Origin: Pseudomonadota bacterium | GTDB taxonomy: Bacteria > Pseudomonadota > Gammaproteobacteria > RBG-16-57-12 | Direction of reading: 5' to 3' | Length of the DNA stretch: 64,000 nt | Assembly: GCA_040752855.1 (NCBI GenBank) | Contig: JBFMHP010000046.1 | Location: forward strand, 9,349-73,348 | Shown: positions 7,401 through 35,022 of the stretch, in pieces | Position numbering within the stretch: position 1 is the stretch's first letter | How the letters are laid out: each line of letters opens with the position of its first letter | The notes under the pieces: model-generated | What the model was told of the DNA's origin: nothing | What the model saw: only the letters and a program-made list of their open reading frames with translations | The model's database searches: none | Program-made: the position numbers and the translations under genes

Positions 7401-8496
7401 GCGTGGTGGTGGAGTCCAGACGCAAGGTGTCGGAGACGTACGGACCATGATCGAGGTCGTTCACGTACAAGGTCTTGATCTCGGAGAATCCCGCCTCGAC
7501 CAGCTTTTCCAGCACGACCTCGGTGATCTCGTCATTGGCGTTGGCCACGAGCTCGCCGGTCATTTCATCGACCATGTTCTTGGCCAGGATCTTGCCGATC
7601 AGATAATCGCGCGGCACATCCAGCTTGGTCACGCCATCGGTCTCGAGCGATTTGATGGTGCGCGCCGTCACACGACGTCCCTTCTCCACGTACACATTCT
7701 TGCCGGACTTGATATCAAACAGTGCGGTTTCACCGCGCAGACGTTCGGGCACGAGCTTCAGGGTAAACTCGCCCTTCTTGTCGATATTGAAGGTATTGGT
7801 CTCGAAGAAGCTCGCGAGCATCTCTTCGTTGTCGAAGCCCAGCGCGCGCAGCACGACCGTGGCCGGCAGCTTGCGGCGGCGGTCGATACGGACGAAGACG
7901 TTGTCCTTGGGATCGAACTCGAACTCCAACCAGGAGCCACGATAAGGAATGATGACAGCGTTATACAGCAGCTTGCCCGAGGAATGGGTCTTACCGCGGT
8001 CGTGATCGAAGAATACGCCGGGTGAGCGATGCAACTGGGAGACGATCACGCGCTCGGTGCCGTTGATGACGAAGGTGCCGGTATCAGTCATGAGCGGAAT
8101 CTCGCCCATGTAGATCTCTTGTTCCTTCACGTCCTTGATGGACTTAGTGCCGGCCGGAGCCTCTTTGTCGAAGATAACCAGGCGAACCTTGACGCGCAGG
8201 GGTGCTGCATAGGTCGTACCGCGCAGTTTACATTCCTTAACATCAAAGACCGGCTTGCCGAGACGGAAGTCGACATACTCAAGCGAGGCGTACCCCGAAT
8301 AACTCGTGATCGGAAACACGGACTTGAAGGCCGCGTGCAAGCCGCGCTCTGCGCGCTCGCTTGGAGGGGTGTCCAGCTGCAAAAACTCGCGGTAGGAGTC
8401 CTTCTGAATCGCCAGCAGATAGGGAACCCCTAATATGCTGGGGCGTTTACCAAAATCCTTACGGATGCGTTTCTTCTCAGTGAAAGAGTAAGCCAT
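4414..8496 (-). CDS. rpoB: RNA polymerase beta subunit
   Basis: 1360 aa; [13 protein letters not shown] start, [21 protein letters not shown]. Confidence 0.99.
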
Positions 8497-8765
8497 CAGA
8501 ATTCCTCAGCAAATCACTAACGTTGGGTACACACCACGCCAACAGCAGGTCGAGCGGCGTCACAAAAAAACCAAAGAGACAACCTTAAGCGCAAAAAGGC
8601 CGGCAGCTCGATCGCTACCAGCCACACGCCACGGTTATCTCAACAACCTTGTTTCAAAATGGTGTTATGCCTCCGGGCATAATTATATCGGGAAAATCCA
8701 GATACGCACGCCTTCCTTGGCATTTTTTTTGCTGCATCGGCAAAAAAGCGTATCGTTTTGTCGAA

Positions 8766-25249: not shown

Positions 25250-25789
25250 TCAGCCCCTGACACAGGGATAGCGCCGGCGCCGTGGCGCCCGCGGGAAGTC
25301 GGGAACATTGCCCTCGCCGCCGAACAACAGCGGCGCCAGCTCGGTGAGCGCCGCGCGGTAGACCTTGCGCTTGAAGGAGATGACTTGGAAGACCGGCGAC
25401 CAGTAATCGGTCCAGCGCCAGAAGTCGAATTCCGGCCGCTCGGAGCAGGTGAGACAGACGTGGTCGGCAGTCACATTGAGCCTTAACAAGTACCAGATTT
25501 GTTTCTGGCCGATGCACACCGGCTGGCGCTCGCGGCGCACCAGGTGGCTCGGCAAGTGATAACGCAGCCAGTCCGAGGTGCAGCCCAGCACCTCGACATG
25601 CTCCGGTTTGAGGCCCACCTCTTCCCACAGCTCACGAAACAGTGCCTCTTGCGGCGTTTCGTGTTCCTTGATGCCGCCTTGCGGAAACTGCCAGGACTGT
25701 TGCCCGATGCGTTTGGCCCAAAACAGCTTGCCTTGGCGGTTGGCGAGGATGATGCCTACATTCGCTCTGTAACCCTCGGAATCAATCAC
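25250..25789 (-). CDS. rppH: RNA pyrophosphohydrolase
   Basis: [22 protein letters not shown], Nudix box, GQKQIW. Confidence 0.97.
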
Positions 25790-25962
25790 TTGTACTCGAT
25801 TTCAAATCATTCAATGATGGGTTGATTCTTCCACAAAAGACGCGGTTCCAGCAAATCAAATCTGGCGGCGTATTCTGAAACCAATCTCCGCTTGCCAAAC
25901 GCTGCCGCGGCCGCCGCGATTCGCTGTATGATACGCCCCACAATCAATTGAAGGAGCCGATC

Positions 25963-26658
25963 TTGAGCATCGCGATTTTTGATCTCGACAACACCCTGCT
26001 CGGCGGGGACAGCGATTATCTGTGGGGGCAATTCCTGGTGGAACAGGGGCTGGTCGACCGCGAGCACTACACCCGCGAGAATCACCGCTTCTACGAGGAA
26101 TACAAGGCCGGCACGCTGGATATCCACGAGTTTCTCAATTTCAGCCTCAAACCGCTCTCCGAACACGACATGGACGCCCTGAACAAGCTGCATCAGGAAT
26201 TCATGGCCGAGAAGATCGCCCCGATCATGCTCCCGGCGGCACAGCATCTGCTACGCTCCCACCGCGAACAAGGGCATCTGCTGATGATCATCACCGCCAC
26301 CAACCGCTTCGTCACCGCGCCGATCGCCGAGGCCCTGGGTGTGGACGTGCTGCTCGCCACCGAGGCCGAGATCCGCGATCACCGCTACACCGGCCGCACC
26401 TTCGACGTGCCCTGTTTTCAGGCGGGCAAGGTCCAACGCCTCAACAACTGGCTGGCGGCCAATGGCAAGACGCTCTCGACCAGCTGGTTCTACAGCGACT
26501 CGCGCAACGACCTGCCGCTGCTGGAGATGGTCGACCACCCCGTCGCGGTCGATCCCGACGACACCTTGGCCGAACACGCCGAGATGCGCGGCTGGCCGAT
26601 CATCACGCTGCGCGCCGGACTCGCGCCGAAACCGTTCATCCCGGGACTGAAGGATTGA
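25963..26658 (+). CDS. HAD-IB hydrolase (probable histidinol-phosphatase type)
   Basis: IFDLDNTLL, ITATN, YSDSRNDLPLL; TTG start after AAGGAG; divergent from rppH as for P. aeruginosa PA0335. Confidence 0.85.
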   Translation: MSIAIFDLDNTLLGGDSDYLWGQFLVEQGLVDREHYTRENHRFYEEYKAGTLDIHEFLNFSLKPLSEHDMDALNKLHQEFMAEKIAPIMLPAAQHLLRSHREQGHLLMIITATNRFVTAPIAEALGVDVLLATEAEIRDHRYTGRTFDVPCFQAGKVQRLNNWLAANGKTLSTSWFYSDSRNDLPLLEMVDHPVAVDPDDTLAEHAEMRGWPIITLRAGLAPKPFIPGLKD

Positions 26659-27623
26659 AACCCGGCCGGGTCTTGATCGGACTTGCGGCCGCCAGCGTGG
26701 TGCTGCTGGCGCTGGCCCTGGCCGTCGGCAGCGTTCCCCTGAGTCTGCCCGAGGTGCTTTCCGCCCTCGCGGGCCAGGGCGACCCCCTGCAGCAAAGCCT
26801 GGTGTGGGAACTGCGCCTGCCGCGCGCGGCCAGCGCGTTTATCATCGGCGCGCAGCTCGCCCTGGCCGGGGCCCTGATGCAGGTCCTGCTGCGCAATCCC
26901 CTGGCCGATCCTTACATCCTCGGCGTCTCCGGCGGCGCAGGCGTGGCCGCGCTGTGCGCCATGCTGCTCGGCCTCGCCGGGCTGCTGCTCACCGCGAGCG
27001 CCTTCGTCGGCGCGCTCCTCTCCACGTTGTTGGTCTTCGGCTTGGCACACTCGCGCATCGACTGGACCCCCACCCGCTTGCTGCTCACCGGCGTGGTGGT
27101 CGCCATGGGCTGGGGTGCGCTGATCAGCTTCATCCTGGCCATCGCCCCCGAGGCGCAGCTGCGCGGCATGTTGTTCTGGCTGATGGGCGATCTGAGCTAC
27201 AGCCAGTTCCCGGCGCTCGGCACTGTCATCCTCCTACTGACATCGGCGTTGATCTGGCCGCAGGCGCGCGACCTCAACGTGCTCGCGCGCGGCGAATGGC
27301 AGGCCGCCGCCCTCGGCGTGGAGATCCAGCGGCTGCGCTGGCGGCTGTATTTTATCGCCGCCCTGCTGACCGCCAGCGCCGTGGTGCAGGCCGGCAGCAT
27401 CGGCTTCATTGGCCTGGTGGTACCCCATCTGCTGCGCCTGCTCGGCTGTCATGATCATCGTTATTTATTGCCCGCTGCGGTGCTCTGCGGCGGGAGCCTG
27501 TTGCTGCTGGGCGACACCCTGGCCCGCAGCATGATCGCGCCCCAACAACTGCCCGTCGGCATCATCACCGCCTTCATCGGCGTGCCGCTGTTCCTCTATT
27601 TGTTGAACAGGCGGGTGCAATGA
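26655..27623 (+). CDS. FecCD/BtuC-family ABC permease
   Basis: LRLPRA, LRNPLADPYILGVSGGA, GSIGFIGLVVPH. Confidence 0.9.
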   Translation: MKPGRVLIGLAAASVVLLALALAVGSVPLSLPEVLSALAGQGDPLQQSLVWELRLPRAASAFIIGAQLALAGALMQVLLRNPLADPYILGVSGGAGVAALCAMLLGLAGLLLTASAFVGALLSTLLVFGLAHSRIDWTPTRLLLTGVVVAMGWGALISFILAIAPEAQLRGMLFWLMGDLSYSQFPALGTVILLLTSALIWPQARDLNVLARGEWQAAALGVEIQRLRWRLYFIAALLTASAVVQAGSIGFIGLVVPHLLRLLGCHDHRYLLPAAVLCGGSLLLLGDTLARSMIAPQQLPVGIITAFIGVPLFLYLLNRRVQ

Positions 27624-28393
27624 GTCAAACCATCCTCCGCACCGAGAACCTGTATGTCAGCATCGCCGGGCTGCCGATCTGCCGCGCGCTCGATCTCACC
27701 ATCGAGTCCGGACAATGCTGGGCCATCCTTGGAAGAAACGGCGCGGGTAAAACCACCCTGCTGCACACGCTGGCGGGGTTGCGCTCACCCGATGCCGGAC
27801 GAATCCTGCTCGAAGACACGCCGCTTGCAACGCTTCCCCGGCGCGCGATCGCGCAGCGCATCGGCGTGCTGTTCCAGGAGACCGATGCCACCTTCCCCGG
27901 CACCGTGCTGGAACAGGCGCTGCTCGGCCGTCACCCCTGGCTGGGGCGCTGGCAGTGGGAAGGACCAAGCGATCACGCGCTCGCCGTGGAGGCCCTGCGC
28001 CAAGTCGATTTGAGCGCACTCCAAGATCGCCAAGTCGGCACCCTCTCCGGCGGCGAACGCCAACGCCTCGCGCTCGCCACGCTGATCACCCAGGTCCCAC
28101 GTCTCCTGCTGCTCGATGAGCCGAACAACCACCTCGATCTCCATCATCAAATCACACTGCTGGACTTACTGTGCCGGCAAGCCCGACAACACAAAACCGC
28201 CGTGATGATGATCGTGCACGACGTGAACCTCGCGCTGCGCTTTTGCAGCCACCTGCTCCTGCTGTTCGGCGACGGGGAGACACAACAAGGGCCGGCACTC
28301 CAAGTCGCCACCTCCGAGACCTTGAGCCGACTCTACCGCCAGCCCATCACGCGCCTGGACGGTCCGCATGGACCGGTGTTCGTGCCGCAATGA
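27620..28393 (+). CDS. FecE/BtuD-family ABC ATPase
   Basis: GRNGAGKTT, LSGGERQR, LLLDEP. Confidence 0.92.
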   Translation: MSQTILRTENLYVSIAGLPICRALDLTIESGQCWAILGRNGAGKTTLLHTLAGLRSPDAGRILLEDTPLATLPRRAIAQRIGVLFQETDATFPGTVLEQALLGRHPWLGRWQWEGPSDHALAVEALRQVDLSALQDRQVGTLSGGERQRLALATLITQVPRLLLLDEPNNHLDLHHQITLLDLLCRQARQHKTAVMMIVHDVNLALRFCSHLLLLFGDGETQQGPALQVATSETLSRLYRQPITRLDGPHGPVFVPQ

Positions 28394-28974
28394 AATCTCG
28401 CTCAACGACAAACGGCAGCCAACAATGGCCTGTGCTTTTTCGGTATGGGAACACGCTCTTTCTTGCGCTACTCGCACTCCCTTCCATGGGATGCGACAGA
28501 TCGTTCAAGCACATACAGATCGACCCGATTCAACCATCCCGTCTCGACGTATTCGTTGGCAAGGGAAACACCATCGCGCTGGAATTCCACAACGAGAACC
28601 CAAATCCGGCAGTGGACGTCTTTCCAGAACCCCCTCTGACCGTGCGACACATCCCATCAGGGCACAGCTGCGAAATCGATGGCGGGGTTTGGGTAAGGCG
28701 CTCGGTTTATCTAAGCGCGGATGAAGCGACCCTTCTTGTGCAGGAATATAGCGGCTCCAACGATCACTTGGTTTTCTACCGTACCCGGAGCTGCAAAAAG
28801 ATCCATGAAATCGAGGTGTCCGGTGCGTTATGGAAAATATCGGGGAATGAACTCGCGATCGGGCACCAATGTTCAGGCGAAGAGATCAAGACATGCAAGT
28901 CGCAGCAGCGCTTGGCGATCGACGCAATTTGCGACGATGAACAAACATCCCGCCGCCTGTTTATCGACAATTGA
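28390..28974 (+). CDS. Periplasmic Tsi1/Tai1-like T6SS amidase immunity protein (orphan)
   Basis: Hydrophobic leader; F.NENP...D.FPEPP, C.IDGGVW.R..VYLS.D, QEYSGS, CSGE...C; six Cys spaced as I recall for P. aeruginosa Tsi1. Confidence 0.7.
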   Translation: MKSRSTTNGSQQWPVLFRYGNTLFLALLALPSMGCDRSFKHIQIDPIQPSRLDVFVGKGNTIALEFHNENPNPAVDVFPEPPLTVRHIPSGHSCEIDGGVWVRRSVYLSADEATLLVQEYSGSNDHLVFYRTRSCKKIHEIEVSGALWKISGNELAIGHQCSGEEIKTCKSQQRLAIDAICDDEQTSRRLFIDN

Positions 28975-29056
28975 AGAACGGGCCTTCCGGTGAAAACACG
29001 CCGCTCCCTGTGCCGCACGGAACCTCGGTTCCTTACACTCAGCCACTATTGATTGC

Positions 29057-29085
29057 TTGACCTCACCGCCCCCGCTCATTACAGT
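29057..29085 (+). promoter_or_regulatory. sigma70 promoter upstream of the riboswitch
   Basis: TTGACC-17 nt-TACAGT. Confidence 0.6.
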
Positions 29086-29094
29086 AAGCGCCAG

Positions 29095-29250
29095 TTTCAG
29101 GTGTTCCCCATGGGAATGAAACGGGAAGTCGGTCCAACGCCGACGCTGCCCCCGCAACGGTAGGTGAGAACCGCTGGCAACAGGCCACTGTGCAATACGC
29201 ATGGGAAGGCGCCAGCTGATGTCAACTCACGAGCCCGGAGACCGGCCTGG
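29095..29250 (+). ncRNA. Cobalamin riboswitch
   Basis: CAGGTG...GAAACGGGAAGTCGGT...CTGCCCCCGCAACGGT...GCCACTG...GGGAAGGC...GAGCCCGGAGACCGGCCTG (B12 box). Confidence 0.93.
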
Positions 29251-29363
29251 AACCCACAGGATCTATTCCTGCACCGGTGTTGCGGCGGGCGACACGAGGT
29301 TGGTACGCCTTCCTCTCCTCCAGCCCATCACCAATCGATTTCCTGCACGGGGTGATGCGCGCC

Positions 29364-30047
29364 ATGGGATACACCAACACATCTACGCACAAGCTGTTCG
29401 GCTTCATCGTCTTCTCGGTGCTCGCGCACGGACTGTTGCTGCTCCCCTGGCTCTCGATGCCCACGCCGAGCGCCACTCCCTTCGCCTTTGAGCTGACCGA
29501 TATCAATGTGCTTCCAGCGGTGGCGCCAACGCCGATACAGGAGCCGCCGCGCCCTCAACGTACCGCGACAAATCCCGAACCACAGCCCTTGCCTCAGCCA
29601 CTGAAGCGCGCACCCGATGACGTATCCACCGTCGGCATTCCTCCCGTCGTTGCCGACACCGCCGAGCCGCAAGGGTCCCCGCAAGAAACGACCCTCGCCT
29701 CCGCATCGGAGCCTGACGCTGCAACGCAAAATGACGCCGAGCGCCAAGCAATGGCAAAGGAGCAATTGCGCACGCGCCTGATTCGCCTGCTCGATGCGCA
29801 CTTCACCTATCCGCATCTGGCGCGCAAACACGGCTGGGAGGGCGAGGTGCTGCTCAGTTTTCAGGTCACCCACTCTGGCGTGATCGAACACATCCAGATC
29901 AGCCGCAGCTCCGGGCACGGCGTGCTGGACAAGGCGGCGATGGCCGCGCTCGGCAAGATCCAGCAGGTGGATACCGGACAGCTACACTTGACTTGGGAAA
30001 CGCTGGAAATGGATTTGCCGGTGATCTACCGCTTAACGGAGGGTTGA
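29364..30047 (+). CDS. tonB: Energy transducer TonB
   Basis: N-terminal TM with SVLAHG, Pro-rich linker, YPHLARKHGWEGEV, SSGHGVLDKAA; start may be 29355. Confidence 0.9.
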   Translation: MGYTNTSTHKLFGFIVFSVLAHGLLLLPWLSMPTPSATPFAFELTDINVLPAVAPTPIQEPPRPQRTATNPEPQPLPQPLKRAPDDVSTVGIPPVVADTAEPQGSPQETTLASASEPDAATQNDAERQAMAKEQLRTRLIRLLDAHFTYPHLARKHGWEGEVLLSFQVTHSGVIEHIQISRSSGHGVLDKAAMAALGKIQQVDTGQLHLTWETLEMDLPVIYRLTEG

Positions 30048-30587
30048 ATGGGTTACCGCCTATCGAAGATCTACACACGCACCGGGGACAAGGGCACCAC
30101 GGGACTCGGCGATGGCAGCCGCATCAGCAAGGACGATGCGCGGGTGATGGCCATGGGCGAGGTCGACGAGCTCAATGCCTGTCTCGGGAAGCTGCTCACC
30201 CTGCCCTGCCCGCCGGAGGTGAGCGCCATGCTCACGCGCATTCAGCATGAGCTGTTCAACCTGGGCGGTGAACTCTGCCTGCCGGGACAACAGTTCATAC
30301 AAACAACTCATGTGGAATGGCTGGAGCAACAACTCGACGGCCTCAATGCCCACCTCACACCGCTTGCCGAGTTCATCCTGCCGGGCGGCACGGCGGCGGC
30401 CGCCGAGTGCCATCTCGCGCGCACCGTGTGCCGGCGCGCCGAGCGCAGCGTGATCACGCTGGGCAAAGACGCGGCGGTAAACGAACCGCTGCTCGCCTAT
30501 CTCAATCGTCTGTCGGACCTGTTGTTCGTAACGGCGCGTTATTTGAATAAATCCGCCGGCCATGCGGATGTGTTGTGGCAGAGGTAG
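30048..30587 (+). CDS. pduO: PduO-type corrinoid adenosyltransferase
   Basis: KIYTRTGDKGTT, RTVCRRAER, YLNRLSDLLF. Confidence 0.95.
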   Translation: MGYRLSKIYTRTGDKGTTGLGDGSRISKDDARVMAMGEVDELNACLGKLLTLPCPPEVSAMLTRIQHELFNLGGELCLPGQQFIQTTHVEWLEQQLDGLNAHLTPLAEFILPGGTAAAAECHLARTVCRRAERSVITLGKDAAVNEPLLAYLNRLSDLLFVTARYLNKSAGHADVLWQR

Positions 30588-30848: not shown

Positions 30849-32900
30849 TTAGCGCCGCAAGGTCACCACGCCCTCGGCGCTGACCTCGATCAAATCGCCA
30901 TCGCGCAGCGTAGTGCTGGCCCCCGCAAGCACCAGCACCGGATAGTCGAGTTCGCGCGCGACGATCGCCGCATGCGAGAGGGCCCCGCCCATATCACTGA
31001 TACAGCCCACCGAGGCGGAATAATGGCCCACGAGTTCGGGGGTAAGATGCGGCGTGATCAGCACCTCATTGCCGCTGAGTGGCTTGTCCGCAATCCCCGC
31101 GACCTGGCGCGCCACGCCGCTGAAGCCCTTGCGCACCGAGACCATCCTGCCGTGCAGGCCCGGGGCGGCCGCGCCGGGATCGGTAAGCCGTTCGATGGAC
31201 TCCAGGGTGATTTCATCGCCGAGTTGCAGCGCCGCCCAGTGTGACTCCTGGTTCAAGCGCATCTCGCAGACCGCGCGCACGTCGTGGAGATCGAACTCGC
31301 CGGCGGCGATAGCCTCGATATCCTCGAGCCCGAGAAAGAAGACCTGCCCGGGATCAAGCCCGAGCACCCGCTCCAGCGTTAGCACATTGACGCGCAGATC
31401 ATACAGCCAGCGTATGGCGCGATCCTTCGCCAGTTCCTTGAAATGGGTGAAGCTGCGGCCAGCTTCCACCGCACCCCAGGGGAAGTTGGCGAACCGGCCG
31501 GCGTATGTCACCGCCGCGGCGGGGGCCTCGCAGAAGCGCGGCTCGGCCAGTTCATAATCATTGGCGCTGCGCCGTCCCCACTTCTCCAGAAACTCGCCTT
31601 GCTCACCGGTGTGATGCAGCCGCGAGAGATCGCGCATCAGCTGCGAGGTGAGCGAGGCCGCCGCGTCTTCCTCGCCGGCGAGCTGTGCGAGCAGCGTCGC
31701 AGCATAGGCGATGGGATAGACCTGCTCGATGAAGGTGCGCGCCCCGGCCGCCACGGCCCGCGCCGCATCATCGGCGTGGGTGTAGTGCGTGTGCGCATCG
31801 ACCGGATAGGCAGGAAAGCTCGCGATGGCCTCGTCCAGCCAGCCCAGCAATTCCTCCGGCCGTTGCTGAATGCGTTTTTTCAGTTTGTGCGTAGCCCAAA
31901 GGCTCTTGACCCCGGGACCGAACAGCGTGCGCTCCACCTCGGCGTTGGCATAGAGCCGGCCGAAGACCGAAACTATGTACGGCTGCGTGAGCGCGGGACA
32001 CGGCAGTTGCAATAGTTGCAGCGCGCGTCCCAGGGCGCCGCTGGGCGCATACAGGCGCTCGATCATCGAACGGGTCAGCCGTGTCGGCGCGGCGACCACC
32101 TCGCGCACCGCGGAATTCTGAAATACCGGCAAACCCTTCTGTGCGTACTTGCCCGCCAGGGCCAGTTCGGCCACGCGCTCCTGCTCGCTAGCGATGCCCG
32201 GTTCGTAGAGATGGGAGGTGATGTCGCGCGATTGCAGGATATAAAGCCGCGCGCGCTTGGCATCATACGCCCACTCGATGTCCTGCGCGGCGCCCATCTT
32301 CTCTTCGATGACCATGCCGGCCAGGAAGACCAGCGACAGCATCGGCTCATGGCGGGACGCCGCGCCGTACAGCGTGCCGGTCCAGCGACCATAGTCAACG
32401 CGCACCGGCTCGACCTTGCCGGAGACCACGGCATCGGCGGTGCCCGAGCCGAATTCGCAACTGGCCAGCCCGTGATTCTCCGGCGAGCGGGTGAACAGCA
32501 CGCCGGCGAAATCCGGTTCGATCATCGGTTGGATCAGCACTGCGCTGGTAGCGAGCGCTTCGCCAAAGGAGGCGCGCACCTGGTCGATCGCCACCGGCAA
32601 TGCATCGCCCGCCACATGCAACTCGGTATAAAACTTACCGGCCATGCTCTCGTTGATGCCGTCTTCGTTCAGCCCGCAGGAACGCACCGCATACGGGCCG
32701 GGACCGAGCGTCTGCAAGCGCGCTTTAAGCGCCGCTGAATGTTGCGCATGATCGTAAGCCGGCAGCAGCACCAAGCCCTCGGGGACATGAAACAGCTGCG
32801 GCCGGAGCTGATGCAGGCGCGCGAGATGACGGGCCTTGTTGCCGATGCCATCGCGATCGGCCTCTGCGAAATCGAGTATCACTTGATCTGGATTATTCAT
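30849..32900 (-). CDS. PEP/pyruvate-binding (ATP-grasp) plus His-swivel phosphotransferase of rifampin-phosphotransferase-like architecture
   Basis: GIGNKA, AVRS...ED...SMAGKF, IQPMI, GVLFT, DIEWA, YILQSRDIT; C-terminal GALSHAAIVARE phospho-His motif. Confidence 0.88.
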   Translation of the reverse strand: MNNPDQVILDFAEADRDGIGNKARHLARLHQLRPQLFHVPEGLVLLPAYDHAQHSAALKARLQTLGPGPYAVRSCGLNEDGINESMAGKFYTELHVAGDALPVAIDQVRASFGEALATSAVLIQPMIEPDFAGVLFTRSPENHGLASCEFGSGTADAVVSGKVEPVRVDYGRWTGTLYGAASRHEPMLSLVFLAGMVIEEKMGAAQDIEWAYDAKRARLYILQSRDITSHLYEPGIASEQERVAELALAGKYAQKGLPVFQNSAVREVVAAPTRLTRSMIERLYAPSGALGRALQLLQLPCPALTQPYIVSVFGRLYANAEVERTLFGPGVKSLWATHKLKKRIQQRPEELLGWLDEAIASFPAYPVDAHTHYTHADDAARAVAAGARTFIEQVYPIAYAATLLAQLAGEEDAAASLTSQLMRDLSRLHHTGEQGEFLEKWGRRSANDYELAEPRFCEAPAAAVTYAGRFANFPWGAVEAGRSFTHFKELAKDRAIRWLYDLRVNVLTLERVLGLDPGQVFFLGLEDIEAIAAGEFDLHDVRAVCEMRLNQESHWAALQLGDEITLESIERLTDPGAAAPGLHGRMVSVRKGFSGVARQVAGIADKPLSGNEVLITPHLTPELVGHYSASVGCISDMGGALSHAAIVARELDYPVLVLAGASTTLRDGDLIEVSAEGVVTLRR

Positions 32901-34762
32901 GCCGCCCTCATCACTGCGCGCGCGAACCGGCGGTTGGCATGACGGCGGGCCAGCAATTCCTGCAGTGTGGTCACCAGCAATACGCCGGTTACATACAACA
33001 TCAGGCTGGCGGGCAGATAGAGCAACAGGATGGCGAAGGCCACGGTGATCAGCAGGGCCGTCAGCGGTTTGAGCGTCATCCCCGACAGGCGCATCTTGAG
33101 ATAGACCATCGCCGCCACGACCAGGCTCAGCGCCACATCCGGCTGCGTGAGTTTGTCGATCCATAAAAAGCCGGCGGCTGAGAACTCCGCCGGCGGCTTG
33201 GAGAGGATCGCATAGGCTGGCAGGATCAAGGCGAGCATCACGGCGGTGCCGAGCAGTTCCCACCCGCCGCGCACGCCGAGGTGATGCATCATCGCCTGGC
33301 TCGATCCCGCCCAGGCGGGGCGCGGCGTTGACGCGATCGCCTGTTTGATCCGGGCGCGCATCATGCGCGAACGCGCCTCAAAGATGCCGATCGGGAAAAA
33401 CACCAGCCGCAGCAGCATTGCCACGATCAGGATGCCGAAACCGGTGACGATGCCGAGTCCGTCTTCCAGGATATCCACGGCCTTCCAGAACGGATAATGC
33501 AGCGCATCGACGATGCCTTTGGAGTTCTGCGCGTCCCAGCGGATGGCGGCGGCCTCAGGCAGCCGCGCGGTGAAGCCGAGCAGCTTAAAGCGCTCGGGGT
33601 CGTGGCCGAGCCGCTCCCACATCTCGAAGGCCACGTCGAGACCGTCGTACACCCAATCGTATTTGGTCAGGCCGATCACCATGAAGGGCTTGCCGTCGAG
33701 CCGGGTGGCGAGCTGCTCGACGATCACCGAGGTCCACTCCCCGCCCATGTCGATGTTTAAGACGCGGCTCTTGTCGACACCGGTGAGCAGCACATCCATG
33801 TATTCGACATCGTGGGTGTATTGGGAACGGTGAAAGCTGTTATAGGGGGCAATCAGCATCACCTCCTCGTTATCGAGCAACTCCGCCACCTCGTCATCCG
33901 GCAGCAGGGTGAGCATTTCGGGAAAGCGCGCGCGCGCATCGTCGATGATCCAAGCCTCGTCCCGCACCGGCCAGTCGATCAGGGATTGCTCGGCATTGGC
34001 GGGGCGCAGCTTTTCGTCCCGCTCCCGCACATAACGATGTTCATTCTGCACATCCACCACGACGTAGATGTTCTCGAATTTGCGGAAGACCTCCAGCGCG
34101 GCCGGGTCCGACGCGAATTTATCCGGCGTGCGCTCGAAGTGCATCTGGAAGTCGTCCAGATAGAGATCCTTGGTATTGATCTCGCGCAGGCGGCGCGTCA
34201 ATTCCGTGGGGCGCACATAGGTGAACGGCCGCAGTTGACCGCCGACTTCGACCGCCGGAAAACCGGAGTGGTATTGAATCGAGCGGCGATAGGTCGAGAT
34301 CAATGCGCCATCCGGCTGAGCCATCAACTGGTATGGCAGCACTTCCATCCGCACCTGCTTGAAATTCCCGTAGGCCCGCCATTTCTCTTCGGCGTTTACG
34401 TTGTTGGTGTTCCATTCCAGGAAGGCCTCGTGCGCCGGAATATCGCAGCGCAAGTACATGGCGAGATGGTCAAGCCGCTCCTGCCGCTGGTCCTGATACC
34501 AGGCATAGGCCCCGAGCAGGATGAGTCCCACGAGCACGATGAACCCGCCGAACACCCCGCCGATGATCAGGCCGCCGGCCTGCGGCCCGAGCCAGCGCCG
34601 GACCCAGAGATAGACGCCGCCCAGCGCCGTGGCGATCGCGCCGGTGATGATGGGCACCACATTGGCCACGCTGACCAGGGCATCCGGCGTTGGCAGGGCA
34701 TGGGCTTGCGCGGGCAGCGCCATCCACCCCAGCATCATCAAGTATCGAATCAATAACCCCAT
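32897..34762 (-). CDS. Membrane protein with a large extracytoplasmic region and a C-terminal YidC/Oxa1-like insertase core
   Basis: Signal peptide (AQAHA), two TMs, about 330 aa soluble region, then GILIVAMLLRLVFFP, FLWIDKLTQPD, LPASLMLY...TLQ YidC-like motifs. Confidence 0.72.
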   Translation of the reverse strand: MGLLIRYLMMLGWMALPAQAHALPTPDALVSVANVVPIITGAIATALGGVYLWVRRWLGPQAGGLIIGGVFGGFIVLVGLILLGAYAWYQDQRQERLDHLAMYLRCDIPAHEAFLEWNTNNVNAEEKWRAYGNFKQVRMEVLPYQLMAQPDGALISTYRRSIQYHSGFPAVEVGGQLRPFTYVRPTELTRRLREINTKDLYLDDFQMHFERTPDKFASDPAALEVFRKFENIYVVVDVQNEHRYVRERDEKLRPANAEQSLIDWPVRDEAWIIDDARARFPEMLTLLPDDEVAELLDNEEVMLIAPYNSFHRSQYTHDVEYMDVLLTGVDKSRVLNIDMGGEWTSVIVEQLATRLDGKPFMVIGLTKYDWVYDGLDVAFEMWERLGHDPERFKLLGFTARLPEAAAIRWDAQNSKGIVDALHYPFWKAVDILEDGLGIVTGFGILIVAMLLRLVFFPIGIFEARSRMMRARIKQAIASTPRPAWAGSSQAMMHHLGVRGGWELLGTAVMLALILPAYAILSKPPAEFSAAGFLWIDKLTQPDVALSLVVAAMVYLKMRLSGMTLKPLTALLITVAFAILLLYLPASLMLYVTGVLLVTTLQELLARRHANRRFARAVMRAA

Positions 34763-35022
34763 GCCGAAACCACCACTGCTTGCGTACGCCCCGCCGCACC
34801 CTCGTTCGAGCGTATCGATCAACAAAAGAAACATCCGCCATCAAAAGGAGGGAGCCAAAAAGACCAGTCAGGCATGCCGGGAATTGTGATGCCTCACCCC
34901 ATTGATTGACAAAAGCAATTTGCGACTCGCCCCCCCGAGGCAGCCATCACCCTACCACACGGCATGGTTTGCACCAAGCCCGGCCCGGCTGTGAACCTGT
35001 CCGCTCTTTCCATCTTTTTAAC

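Follow-up and report, generated by a model that had tools for sequence, protein, structure and literature searches.

The closest described counterpart of the gene considered here is Tsi1 (PA1845) of Pseudomonas aeruginosa, which confers immunity to the H1-T6SS amidase Tse1/Tae1 (PDB entries 3vpj, 4eqa, 4fgi, and 4fqb). In its fold, three antiparallel sheets make up a partial beta-propeller, a generic binding scaffold, and a short C-terminal helix follows; two disulfides (Cys79-Cys121 and Cys147-Cys155) are present in the crystal structure, and Ser109 of the beta9-beta10 loop enters the active site of Tse1, forming a hydrogen bond with the catalytic His91 (PMC3391265). Immunity genes of type VI secretion systems (T6SS) also exist as orphans: examples are cited in PMC12483513, and immunity arrays of Vibrio cholerae (PMC5361080) and acquired interbacterial defence genes of Bacteroidales (PMC10470768, PMC12247911) are of this kind. 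In our literature searches, orphan copies of the Tai1 (amidase) immunity family did not emerge as the subject of any paper. Here, we describe such a copy, situated between housekeeping genes of a gammaproteobacterium, and address if it may be considered as an acquired means of defence. All positions refer to the window, i.e., the whole 64,000-nucleotide stretch of DNA that was analysed, and are collected in Table 1.

Table 1. Features of the tsi1 locus and its surroundings, in window coordinates.
Feature	Position	Strand	Basis
HAD-IB histidinol-phosphatase (Pseudomonas type), hisN-like, first operon gene	25948..26658	+	Pfam HAD, E=5.9e-39
BtuC-like FecCD-family ABC permease	26655..27623	+	Pfam FecCD, E=3.7e-86
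BtuD-like ABC ATPase, TGA stop at 28391-28393	27620..28393	+	Pfam ABC_tran, E=4.7e-33
ATGA start/stop overlap of btuD and tsi1	28390..28393	+	Read from sequence
Orphan tsi1 (Tai1 family), partial beta-propeller immunity protein of 194 aa, predicted to be exported	28390..28974	+	PF21565, match to PDB Tsi1, AF2/Foldseek
Putative N-terminal export signal, residues 1-34	28390..28491	+	Inspection, alignment with signal peptides of homologues
Codons of E119-Y-S-G-S123, beta9-beta10 "knob" loop	28744..28758	+	Alignment to Tsi1 chains
3' flank of inserted tsi1	28975..29056	+	No tse1 remnant, terminator, or same-genus homology found
Sigma-70-like promoter (TTGACC, 17 nt spacer, TACAGT), right-hand limit of insertion	29057..29085	+	-10 box position shared with relatives
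Cobalamin riboswitch aptamer	29082..29264	+	Rfam RF00174, 121.2 bits, E=1.7e-30
TonB-like protein, alternative start GTG 29277	29337..30047	+	Pfam TonB_C, E=3.9e-15
PduO-type ATP:cob(I)alamin adenosyltransferase	30048..30587	+	Pfam Cob_adeno_trans, E=9.8e-60

A preliminary description of this DNA had recognized an open reading frame overlapping the stop codon of a btuD-like gene and had likened its product to Tsi1. The coordinates proved exact, and the likeness lies far beyond chance, as shown by profile search, by comparison with Tsi1 chains of known structure, and by fold prediction. The protein scores 147 bits against the Pfam family PF21565 (cut-off 27, E=4.5e-43), aligning with model positions 3-146 of 146, and the scan of the entire genome with this profile returned the identical match; NCBIfam, which lacks a Tsi1 model, gave no matching family. 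P. aeruginosa Tsi1 chains 3vpj_E, 4fqb_B, 4eqa_C, and 4fgi_B were retrieved with E-values from 2e-28 to 1.5e-26 (2.1e-28 for 3vpj_E), identity amounting to 34% over 155 aligned residues. Peptide stretches quoted in the preliminary description are all found in the translation, and the P. aeruginosa motifs it gave (FSNEDPN..DAFPEPP, SGNDCRIEDGGIWSRGGVFLSQD, HEFSGS, and GQKCSGE) coincide exactly with those of the PDB chains in the alignment. The AF2 model (pLDDT 83, pTM 0.73) comprises 13 strands and a helix at residues 177-181. In the Foldseek comparison of this model with PDB, Tsi1 chains account for every one of the best seven matches (target-normalised TM 0.86-0.91, rmsd 1.8-2.1 Å, E about 1e-15), with E=3e-3 for the next one; by model and structural match, the three sheets, the partial beta-propeller, and the C-terminal helix typical of Tsi1 are all present. 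The gene product is a genuine and clear member of the Tsi1/Tai1 family.

Conservation extends to the elements engaged in the contact with the toxin. S123 of the window protein aligns with Ser109, and the loop E119-Y-S-G-S123 corresponds to E-F-S-G-S109 of P. aeruginosa; its E, S, G, and S show no variation across the alignment of 18 homologues, and in the larger set of 28 rows the last serine is replaced, by glutamate, solely in one long-branch sequence. All family-invariant positions of the 18-sequence alignment, those of the active-site loop included, are kept in the window protein. The six cysteines reported earlier as fitting the disulfides of Tsi1 were found in the mature protein, and both pairs bridged in the crystal structure are retained (C94/C135 for Cys79-Cys121 and C161/C169 for Cys147-Cys155), so that the same bonds may be expected to form. 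The fit is incomplete at the N-terminus: five cysteines align exactly with those of P. aeruginosa Tsi1, but the sixth, Cys35, is displaced two residues upstream of the Cys22 position, which is occupied by Arg37, and a putative disulfide linking the N- and C-termini may thereby be missing or involve Cys35 instead. The N-terminus aligns with signal peptides of homologues and of P. aeruginosa Tsi1, combining a basic n-region (K2, R4, and R18) and the hydrophobic core LFLALLALPS followed by SMG|C35, a composition which by eye may fit a Sec signal or else a lipobox of non-canonical type; AF2 places there a lone helix (residues 16-28, low pLDDT) ahead of the Tsi1 fold. Export to the periplasm may be predicted, by Sec or lipoprotein cleavage.

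The genomic surroundings of tsi1 had been labelled as a B12-uptake cluster, which is reasonable given the BtuC-like permease, the ABC ATPase, the cobalamin riboswitch, the TonB-like protein, and the PduO-type adenosyltransferase. The hisN-like gene and the adenosyltransferase gene exceed NCBIfam cut-offs (NF052360, 341.7 bits at a cut-off of 280; TIGR00636, 206 bits); BtuC is the best NCBIfam match of the FecCD permease, but scores for BtuC and BtuD fall below the equivalog cut-offs, and these genes are more safely called "BtuCD-like". Genes of the operon are tightly packed: the probable TTG start of the btuC-like gene overlaps the preceding stop (TTGA), and the ATG of tsi1 (28390-28392) shares bases with the TGA of btuD in a junction resembling the others. 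Neither a promoter-like site within 25700-29056 nor a Shine-Dalgarno-like sequence upstream of this ATG was found, and expression of tsi1 would consequently depend on translational coupling to btuD. Thus the co-expression with the ABC genes proposed in the preliminary description from the ATGA overlap appears probable on sequence grounds. On the other side of the gene, the distance of about 80 bp to the next promoter is correct as described (stop at 28974, TTGACC -35 box at 29057); no terminator-like site was found in the 3' flank, and the spacer has a fold z-score of 0.01. The -10 box directly preceding the riboswitch occupies the same place in two genomes of the same family, being TACAGT in G002 and TATAAT in G006, and orthologous cobalamin riboswitches are present in both of them and in the same-genus genome G001.

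The gene is found in a single copy in the host genome, which is estimated as 99.9% complete. The absence of an adjacent tse1/tae1, noticed at the outset, holds: none lies beside tsi1, and the Tse1 profile revealed no remnant in three forward frames of 28940-29100, a stretch that includes the 107-bp 3' spacer. This lack of the adjoining toxin gene defines the orphan state and is compatible with membership of the family. Genome-wide search for the cognate toxin relied on seven tse1 genes adjoining tsi1 homologues, which were validated against PDB Tse1 (E=1e-59), and the resulting profile recovered Tse1 in all six paired genomes. Applied to the host by two methods, it detected no Tse1/Tae1 homologue, six-frame hmmsearch --max giving nothing better than E=5, and control loci were returned at 1e-82 or better. 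The genome also lacks TssC and Hcp, the genes of the T6SS sheath and tube, respectively. Thus the immunity homologue is present and its cognate effector is missing, in agreement with the orphan status proposed earlier, and since the host possesses neither the toxin nor the secretion system, tsi1 would serve defence alone.

Comparison with relatives supports the previously suggested acquisition of tsi1 in this lineage. No Tsi1 was found in any of 80 related genomes. In G006, the same block of hisN-like, btuC, btuD, riboswitch, tonB, and cobO genes, with the hisN-like gene likewise preceding btuC, is present without tsi1, and only about 12 bp separate btuD from the riboswitch promoter; in G002, the empty site measures 157 bp from btuD to the riboswitch. 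The respective btuD orthologues, 53% and 60% identical to that of the window, stand directly before the cobalamin riboswitch, and homology with G001 begins only at position 29047, none being found in the 3' flank of tsi1 before this point. With a G+C content of 0.53, tsi1 falls below its flanking genes (0.62-0.68) and ranks at about the 3rd percentile among long ORFs. Patchy distribution, empty sites, and atypical composition are thus combined in favour of horizontal gain. No integrase, IS element, recombinase island, or array was found near tsi1, and a 13-nt direct repeat around the gene (28382-28394 and 29010-29022, 11/13 identical) is at chance level, with five repeats of similar size in the same 1 kb, and gives no evidence of an insertion scar. 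Joint arrival of tsi1 and btuCD was considered and rejected, as synteny of btuCD extends to other genera of the family and its G+C resembles that of the host. Gain of a tsi1-tse1 pair with subsequent clean loss of tse1 may fit as well as the gain of tsi1 alone. T6SS are present in neighbouring lineages (G001 and the same-family G003), making a defensive role ecologically plausible.

Orphan genes of this family are not rare. Among 23 species loci, 13 contain intact tsi1 without adjoining tse1 and nine are tse1-paired, one being cut by a contig end; one pseudogene is also encountered. Homologues are located in amgK-murU/lptD, Ivy/GtrA, or M28 peptidase/NAD-GDH contexts or beside tse1/T6SS genes, none of them being linked to B12; in one close homologue, the distance to the Ivy gene is two genes. 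The 13 include a T6SS-less clade of Undibacterium, where tsi1 was found in ten species and the flanking genes are common to nine or ten of them, which suggests vertical inheritance. None of six Undibacterium genomes contains TssC or clear Tse1, a weak match to the latter (E=5e-5) being found in one; pairwise dN/dS of 0.10-0.28 indicates purifying selection, and all functional motifs are kept, but the C161-C169 disulfide loop is missing. The window gene is a recent singleton insertion from another subclade. Since its protein is represented by one record and the closest homologue is 62% identical, selection is not measurable on this copy itself.

Taken together, these data make it probable that the tsi1 gene of the Tai1 family at 28390-28974 was acquired horizontally and, standing alone, confers immunity to T6SS amidases of neighbours. 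The protein would be exported to the periplasm, fold there as a disulfide-stabilised partial beta-propeller, and, by analogy with P. aeruginosa Tsi1, bind gamma-D-Glu-mDAP peptidoglycan amidases of Tae1/Tse1 type injected by surrounding bacteria. Entry of the E-Y-S-G-S123 loop into the active site, with the serine forming a hydrogen bond with the catalytic histidine, would then block cleavage of the cell wall. An immunity protein may act on its cognate effector alone, and both the binding of Tae1 and the ensuing protection are presumed here from this analogy. As to expression, the point of insertion of tsi1 lies exactly between the btuD-like stop codon and the promoter of the riboswitch unit. 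Termination-reinitiation at ATGA is the most likely mode of its translation, and tsi1 would then be expressed from the hisN-like/btuC/btuD operon, having no riboswitch.

The same observations have to be weighed against a less favourable view, according to which a tsi1-tse1 cassette, or tsi1 alone, was gained, the toxin, if any, was lost, and the immunity gene persists as an intact leftover without current benefit. Such decay has been caught in progress in a homologue 59% identical to the window protein (P0003), where an intact tsi1 precedes a tse1 remnant of 58 aa that has lost the region of the catalytic Cys by an in-frame deletion, and tsi1 itself is frameshifted in a Limnobacter MAG. Being a singleton absent from all examined relatives, the window gene offers no demonstration of long-term retention, and the substitution of the conserved N-terminal Cys by Arg would also be in line with this view. 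Nevertheless, the reading frame is intact with every family-invariant position kept, the spacer preserves no trace of tse1, the start codon matches the btuD stop to the base, as at the other junctions of the operon, and tsi1 of T6SS-less Undibacterium is under purifying selection, so we regard neutral persistence as unlikely. Quite improbable is the recruitment of the Tsi1 fold for a new periplasmic task, such as that of a B12-uptake accessory or an inhibitor of the cell's own NlpC/P60 hydrolase. The ATGA coupling to btuD inside a B12-related cluster, the lack of btuF there, and the generic binding capacity of the partial beta-propeller (PMC3391265) would be in line with it, but relatives G006 and G002 run the same btuCD-riboswitch arrangement without tsi1, contexts of homologues are unrelated, the genome contains no Tse1-like enzyme to be regulated, and the Tse1-binding loop is unchanged. 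The more particular idea of Tsi1 as a stand-in for BtuF was rejected, since a BtuF-like Peripla_BP_2 gene is located on contig C19 (138111-138785) and the cluster of relatives works without tsi1. That assembly or binning joined a piece of another organism into the contig, as its lower G+C and the 46-contig state of the draft might insinuate, is hardly credible for a gene lying deep inside contig C46 (the window spans its positions 9349-73348, and the longest contig on record for the protein is 110,835 bp), with both flanks syntenic with relatives, the start codon sharing bases with the btuD stop, and contamination estimated at 0.38%.

With acquired immunity as the preferred reading, it may be tentatively supposed that Tsi1-family genes have an ecology of their own, in which they shield unarmed bacteria as stand-alone genes, a possibility suggested by the numerical excess of tse1-less intact loci over toxin-linked ones, by the maintenance of tsi1 under purifying selection in T6SS-less Undibacterium, and by the wiring of the freshly captured window gene, via exact start/stop overlap, into a housekeeping operon without a riboswitch. 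The latter would provide always-on periplasmic protection. If orphans neutralise a broad range of Tae1 variants, they would constitute, for freshwater and sediment communities, a simple and transferable innate immunity against one of the major classes of cell-wall toxins delivered by T6SS. Orphan immunity genes shape the survival of contact-dependent killing in microbial communities, and most of those documented belong to enterics, Vibrio, and Bacteroidales of the gut, and to bacteria with arms of their own; the window gene and the Undibacterium copies represent the Tai1 amidase-immunity family as stand-alone genes in T6SS-less environmental bacteria, the former being fixed into a core operon. 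As a single gene facing one known family of toxins, with structures already solved, the system is small and tractable and is well suited for the question of how broad cross-protection may be.

The window gene may be compared with the described systems as follows. PF21565 membership, the three-sheet partial beta-propeller with its C-terminal helix, the E-[FY]-S-G-S loop, and two pairs of disulfide cysteines are features in common with P. aeruginosa Tsi1, to which an N-terminal export signal may be added as a putative one; P. aeruginosa Tsi1 differs in the N-terminal cysteine and in the tail of the loop (S-S-A-E instead of S-N-D-H). Unlike the tsi1-tse1 bicistron of P. aeruginosa, tsi1 of the window has no tse1 partner anywhere in a host devoid of T6SS and is embedded in, and probably coupled to, a housekeeping ABC-transporter operon. 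With orphans of V. cholerae and Bacteroidales it shares the lack of a cognate effector, horizontal gain, and the supposed role of shielding from non-kin attackers, but it is a single gene rather than an array, is accompanied by no recombinase or mobile element, resides in a host without T6SS, and belongs to the Tai1 (amidase) family. Undibacterium orphans resemble it in the absence of tse1 and TssC, in the position between housekeeping genes, and in the retention of functional motifs, whereas their copy occupies one chromosomal neighbourhood in most of the ten species and the window gene, a recent singleton insertion, represents another Tsi1 subclade and retains C161-C169. A functional parallel may also be drawn to the lysozyme inhibitors Ivy and PliC/MliC, to which no homology of the window protein was found: by analogy, it too would be exported, stand alone, and plug the active site when a peptidoglycan hydrolase arrives from outside, but fold and target are unrelated, as those proteins inhibit muramidases and not gamma-D-Glu-mDAP amidases. 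Current understanding of T6SS immunity is unchanged by this gene, whose arrangement, most likely that of a borrowed shield, is of a known type and not new.

The Tsi1-like nature of the protein (P0001) proposed in the preliminary description is borne out by family, sequence and structure comparison. PF21565 (Tsi1; Pfam) is matched over the entire model (147 bits, E=4.5e-43), the PDB sequences matching best are the four depositions of P. aeruginosa Tsi1 (E=2e-28 to 1.5e-26), and the best seven Foldseek matches in PDB, found with an AlphaFold2 model built from 18 homologues (mean pLDDT 83), are all Tsi1 chains (E ~1e-15; target-normalised TM 0.86-0.91 and rmsd 1.8-2.1 A for this predicted model), the first non-Tsi1 match appearing at E=3e-3. 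Tsi1 is a partial beta-propeller stabilised by disulfides Cys79-Cys121 and Cys147-Cys155, its beta9-beta10 loop putting Ser109 into the active site of Tse1 with a hydrogen bond to His91 (Benz et al., PMC3391265). In the alignment these pairs correspond to C94/C135 and C161/C169, respectively, and Ser109 to S123 inside E-Y-S-G-S; the loop residues are invariant in 18/18 homologues, the sole departure in the wider 28-row set being the last serine of the loop in the long-branch sequence L025. The protein deviates at the conserved N-terminal cysteine (Cys22 in P. aeruginosa), replaced by Arg37, with Cys35 two residues earlier; by eye, its N-terminus resembles an export signal, and Cys35 may either belong to a lipobox or begin the mature protein. 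Among homologues, proteins of 315-602 aa (P0042, P0038, P0083, P0109, P0110, P0133, P0145, P0159 and P0166) carry the Tsi1 domain C-terminally or as two matched stretches (P0042) and may represent tandem or fused immunity proteins.

Within the assembly (3.52 Mb, 46 contigs, 99.9% complete) Tsi1 has a single match. A Tse1 profile derived from seven of the tse1 genes which in other genomes immediately follow a tsi1 homologue, matching PDB Tse1 at E=1e-59, gave no match in the whole genome; filter-free six-frame hmmsearch was negative as well (best E of 5, control loci being at 1e-82 or better), and the same search recovered Tse1 in 6/6 paired genomes. This profile detects no tse1 remnant in the 107-bp spacer past tsi1, and both TssC (VipB) and Hcp, the sheath and tube proteins of T6SS, are missing from the genome. 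Thus the suggested lack of an adjacent tse1/tae1 and the orphan status of the gene hold at the levels of locus and genome, respectively.

The start codon of tsi1 overlaps the stop codon (TGA) of the ABC ATPase gene preceding it (caATGAaa), as had been pointed out, and the next promoter, expected at about 80 bp, begins 82 bp past the tsi1 stop. Four-base start/stop overlaps (TTGA, ATGA, ATGA) form all junctions of the unit comprising Pseudomonas-type histidinol-phosphatase, FecCD permease (best match BtuC), ABC ATPase (btuD) and tsi1. No riboswitch lies ahead of this unit, unlike the downstream unit, where it is followed by TonB-like and PduO-type adenosyltransferase (cobO) genes. The histidinol-phosphatase gene heads the former unit (window 25948-28974), and the hisN-like/btuC/btuD order also occurs in G006, a genome from another genus of the same family. 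As for the riboswitch unit, comparison of window 29264-29337 with L040:1124-3034 reveals that in G002, another relative from this family, the riboswitch controls btuB-tonB-cobO, while btuB is missing from this unit in the window, G006 and the same-genus genome G001, the TonB-like gene there directly following the riboswitch; two BtuB-like receptor genes (32-34% identity) are found elsewhere in the window's genome (contigs C9 and C39). On the minus strand (30849-34834), the gene for a YidC-like membrane protein overlaps that for an RPH-like PEP-utilising dikinase.

Coordinates of features at the tsi1 locus and at loci of its homologues (L-numbers, loci from other genomes)
Feature	Position	Strand	Details
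tsi1 ORF	window:28390-28974	+	194 aa translated
Promoter, sigma-70-like	window:29057-29085		TTGACC, 17-nt spacer, TACAGT
Cobalamin riboswitch, driven by this promoter	window:29082-29264		121 bits
tse1 remnant by P0003	L002:8554-8730; L003:8194-8370; L004:1358-1534		58 aa, MANLDQ/NGHVAIVV...
Undibacterium orphan tsi1	L005-L007, L010, L013, L017-L019, L022, L026; about 7900-8550 each

Examination of this locus in relatives supported the assumption of horizontal gain. Tsi1 is found in 0/80 related genomes, including the genus's only other species and five more of the family, and G006 retains ptsP, rppH, histidinol-phosphatase, btuC, btuD, riboswitch, tonB and cobO in the order of the window and without tsi1, its btuD stop lying ~12 bp from the -10 box of the riboswitch promoter. 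In G002 the btuD-riboswitch gap is 157 bp. In G001, the closest relative, homology starts exactly at the riboswitch promoter (window 29047 vs L046:4703) with another gene on the left side, and the btuD/riboswitch spacer is therefore a point of rearrangement or recombination in the genus. The G+C content of tsi1 is 53% versus 62-68% in its neighbours (about the 3rd percentile among long ORFs of the genome). Taken together, these data show that tsi1 is a lineage-specific insertion of ~0.66 kb. Neither a mobile-element gene nor a convincing target duplication marks it, and tsi1 may have arrived alone or with tse1 that was later cleanly deleted. G001 has no btuD orthologue, and the gene left of its riboswitch has a homologue on contig C21 of the window's genome.

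The protein groups with metagenomic sequences in a subclade of poor resolution; this subclade displays all stages of the process: paired genes, a damaged toxin gene and a clean orphan. The tsi1-tse1 pair of P0007 (L042:262-5958) directly adjoins two IS91/Y2-transposase genes and one for a large serine recombinase, by which the cassette might be spread. P0003, which shares 59% identity with the protein of the window, is encoded by intact tsi1 adjoining tse1 with ~85 residues deleted in frame, the catalytic cysteine motif included, as if the toxin had been disarmed and its antidote retained; the pair is flanked by amgK-murU, of peptidoglycan recycling, with no T6SS-related genes otherwise beside it. 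P0004 (56% identity) comes from a clean orphan gene, with a gene for the lysozyme inhibitor Ivy two genes upstream (L041:274-1923), and the locus may represent a small group of periplasmic proteins inhibiting foreign cell-wall hydrolases.

With 174 clusters at 50% identity in a set of 1.84 billion representative proteins, the whole family is a small one. Genome scanning yielded 23 tsi1 loci, one per species: in 9 of them tse1 directly follows tsi1, TssC being present in 6/6 checked genomes of such loci, and 13 have intact tsi1 without neighbouring tse1 within the locus sequence examined. One locus is ended by a contig edge and one is frameshifted; the latter, from a Limnobacter MAG, has tsi1 split over two overlapping frames (L027:7048-7565), either as a pseudogene or through sequencing error. 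Ten unpaired loci belong to Undibacterium, where all ten species recovered have orphan tsi1, placed in nine or ten cases between M28 peptidase and NAD-glutamate dehydrogenase genes, with an M13 peptidase gene equally shared by the flanks. Six Undibacterium genomes checked contain neither TssC nor clear Tse1 (one weak match, E=5e-5), and pairwise dN/dS among the Undibacterium tsi1 copies is 0.10-0.28, which argues that selection can keep orphan Tsi1 genes in unarmed bacteria.

We consider it probable that tsi1 is a functional stand-alone shield: expressed by coupling to btuD, its product would be exported and would plug amidases of the Tae1 type that neighbouring cells inject. T6SS-positive bacteria are found even inside the same genus. 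The main rival, that the gene is a relic, still intact but useless, appears unlikely. That the protein was co-opted for housekeeping or a function related to B12 is highly improbable, since relatives have the same cluster without tsi1, a BtuF-like gene sits elsewhere in the genome, none of the homologues is linked to B12 and the loop that binds the toxin has not changed. An assembly artefact deserves hardly any credence. The shield reading agrees with the overall interpretation in the preliminary description, judged correct, of a horizontally gained stand-alone immunity gene of the Tsi1 family. Because literature searches turned up no work dedicated to orphan Tai1/Tsi1 genes, the Undibacterium orphans and the operon-embedded copy are modest additions to what is known of T6SS orphan immunity genes, an established phenomenon.
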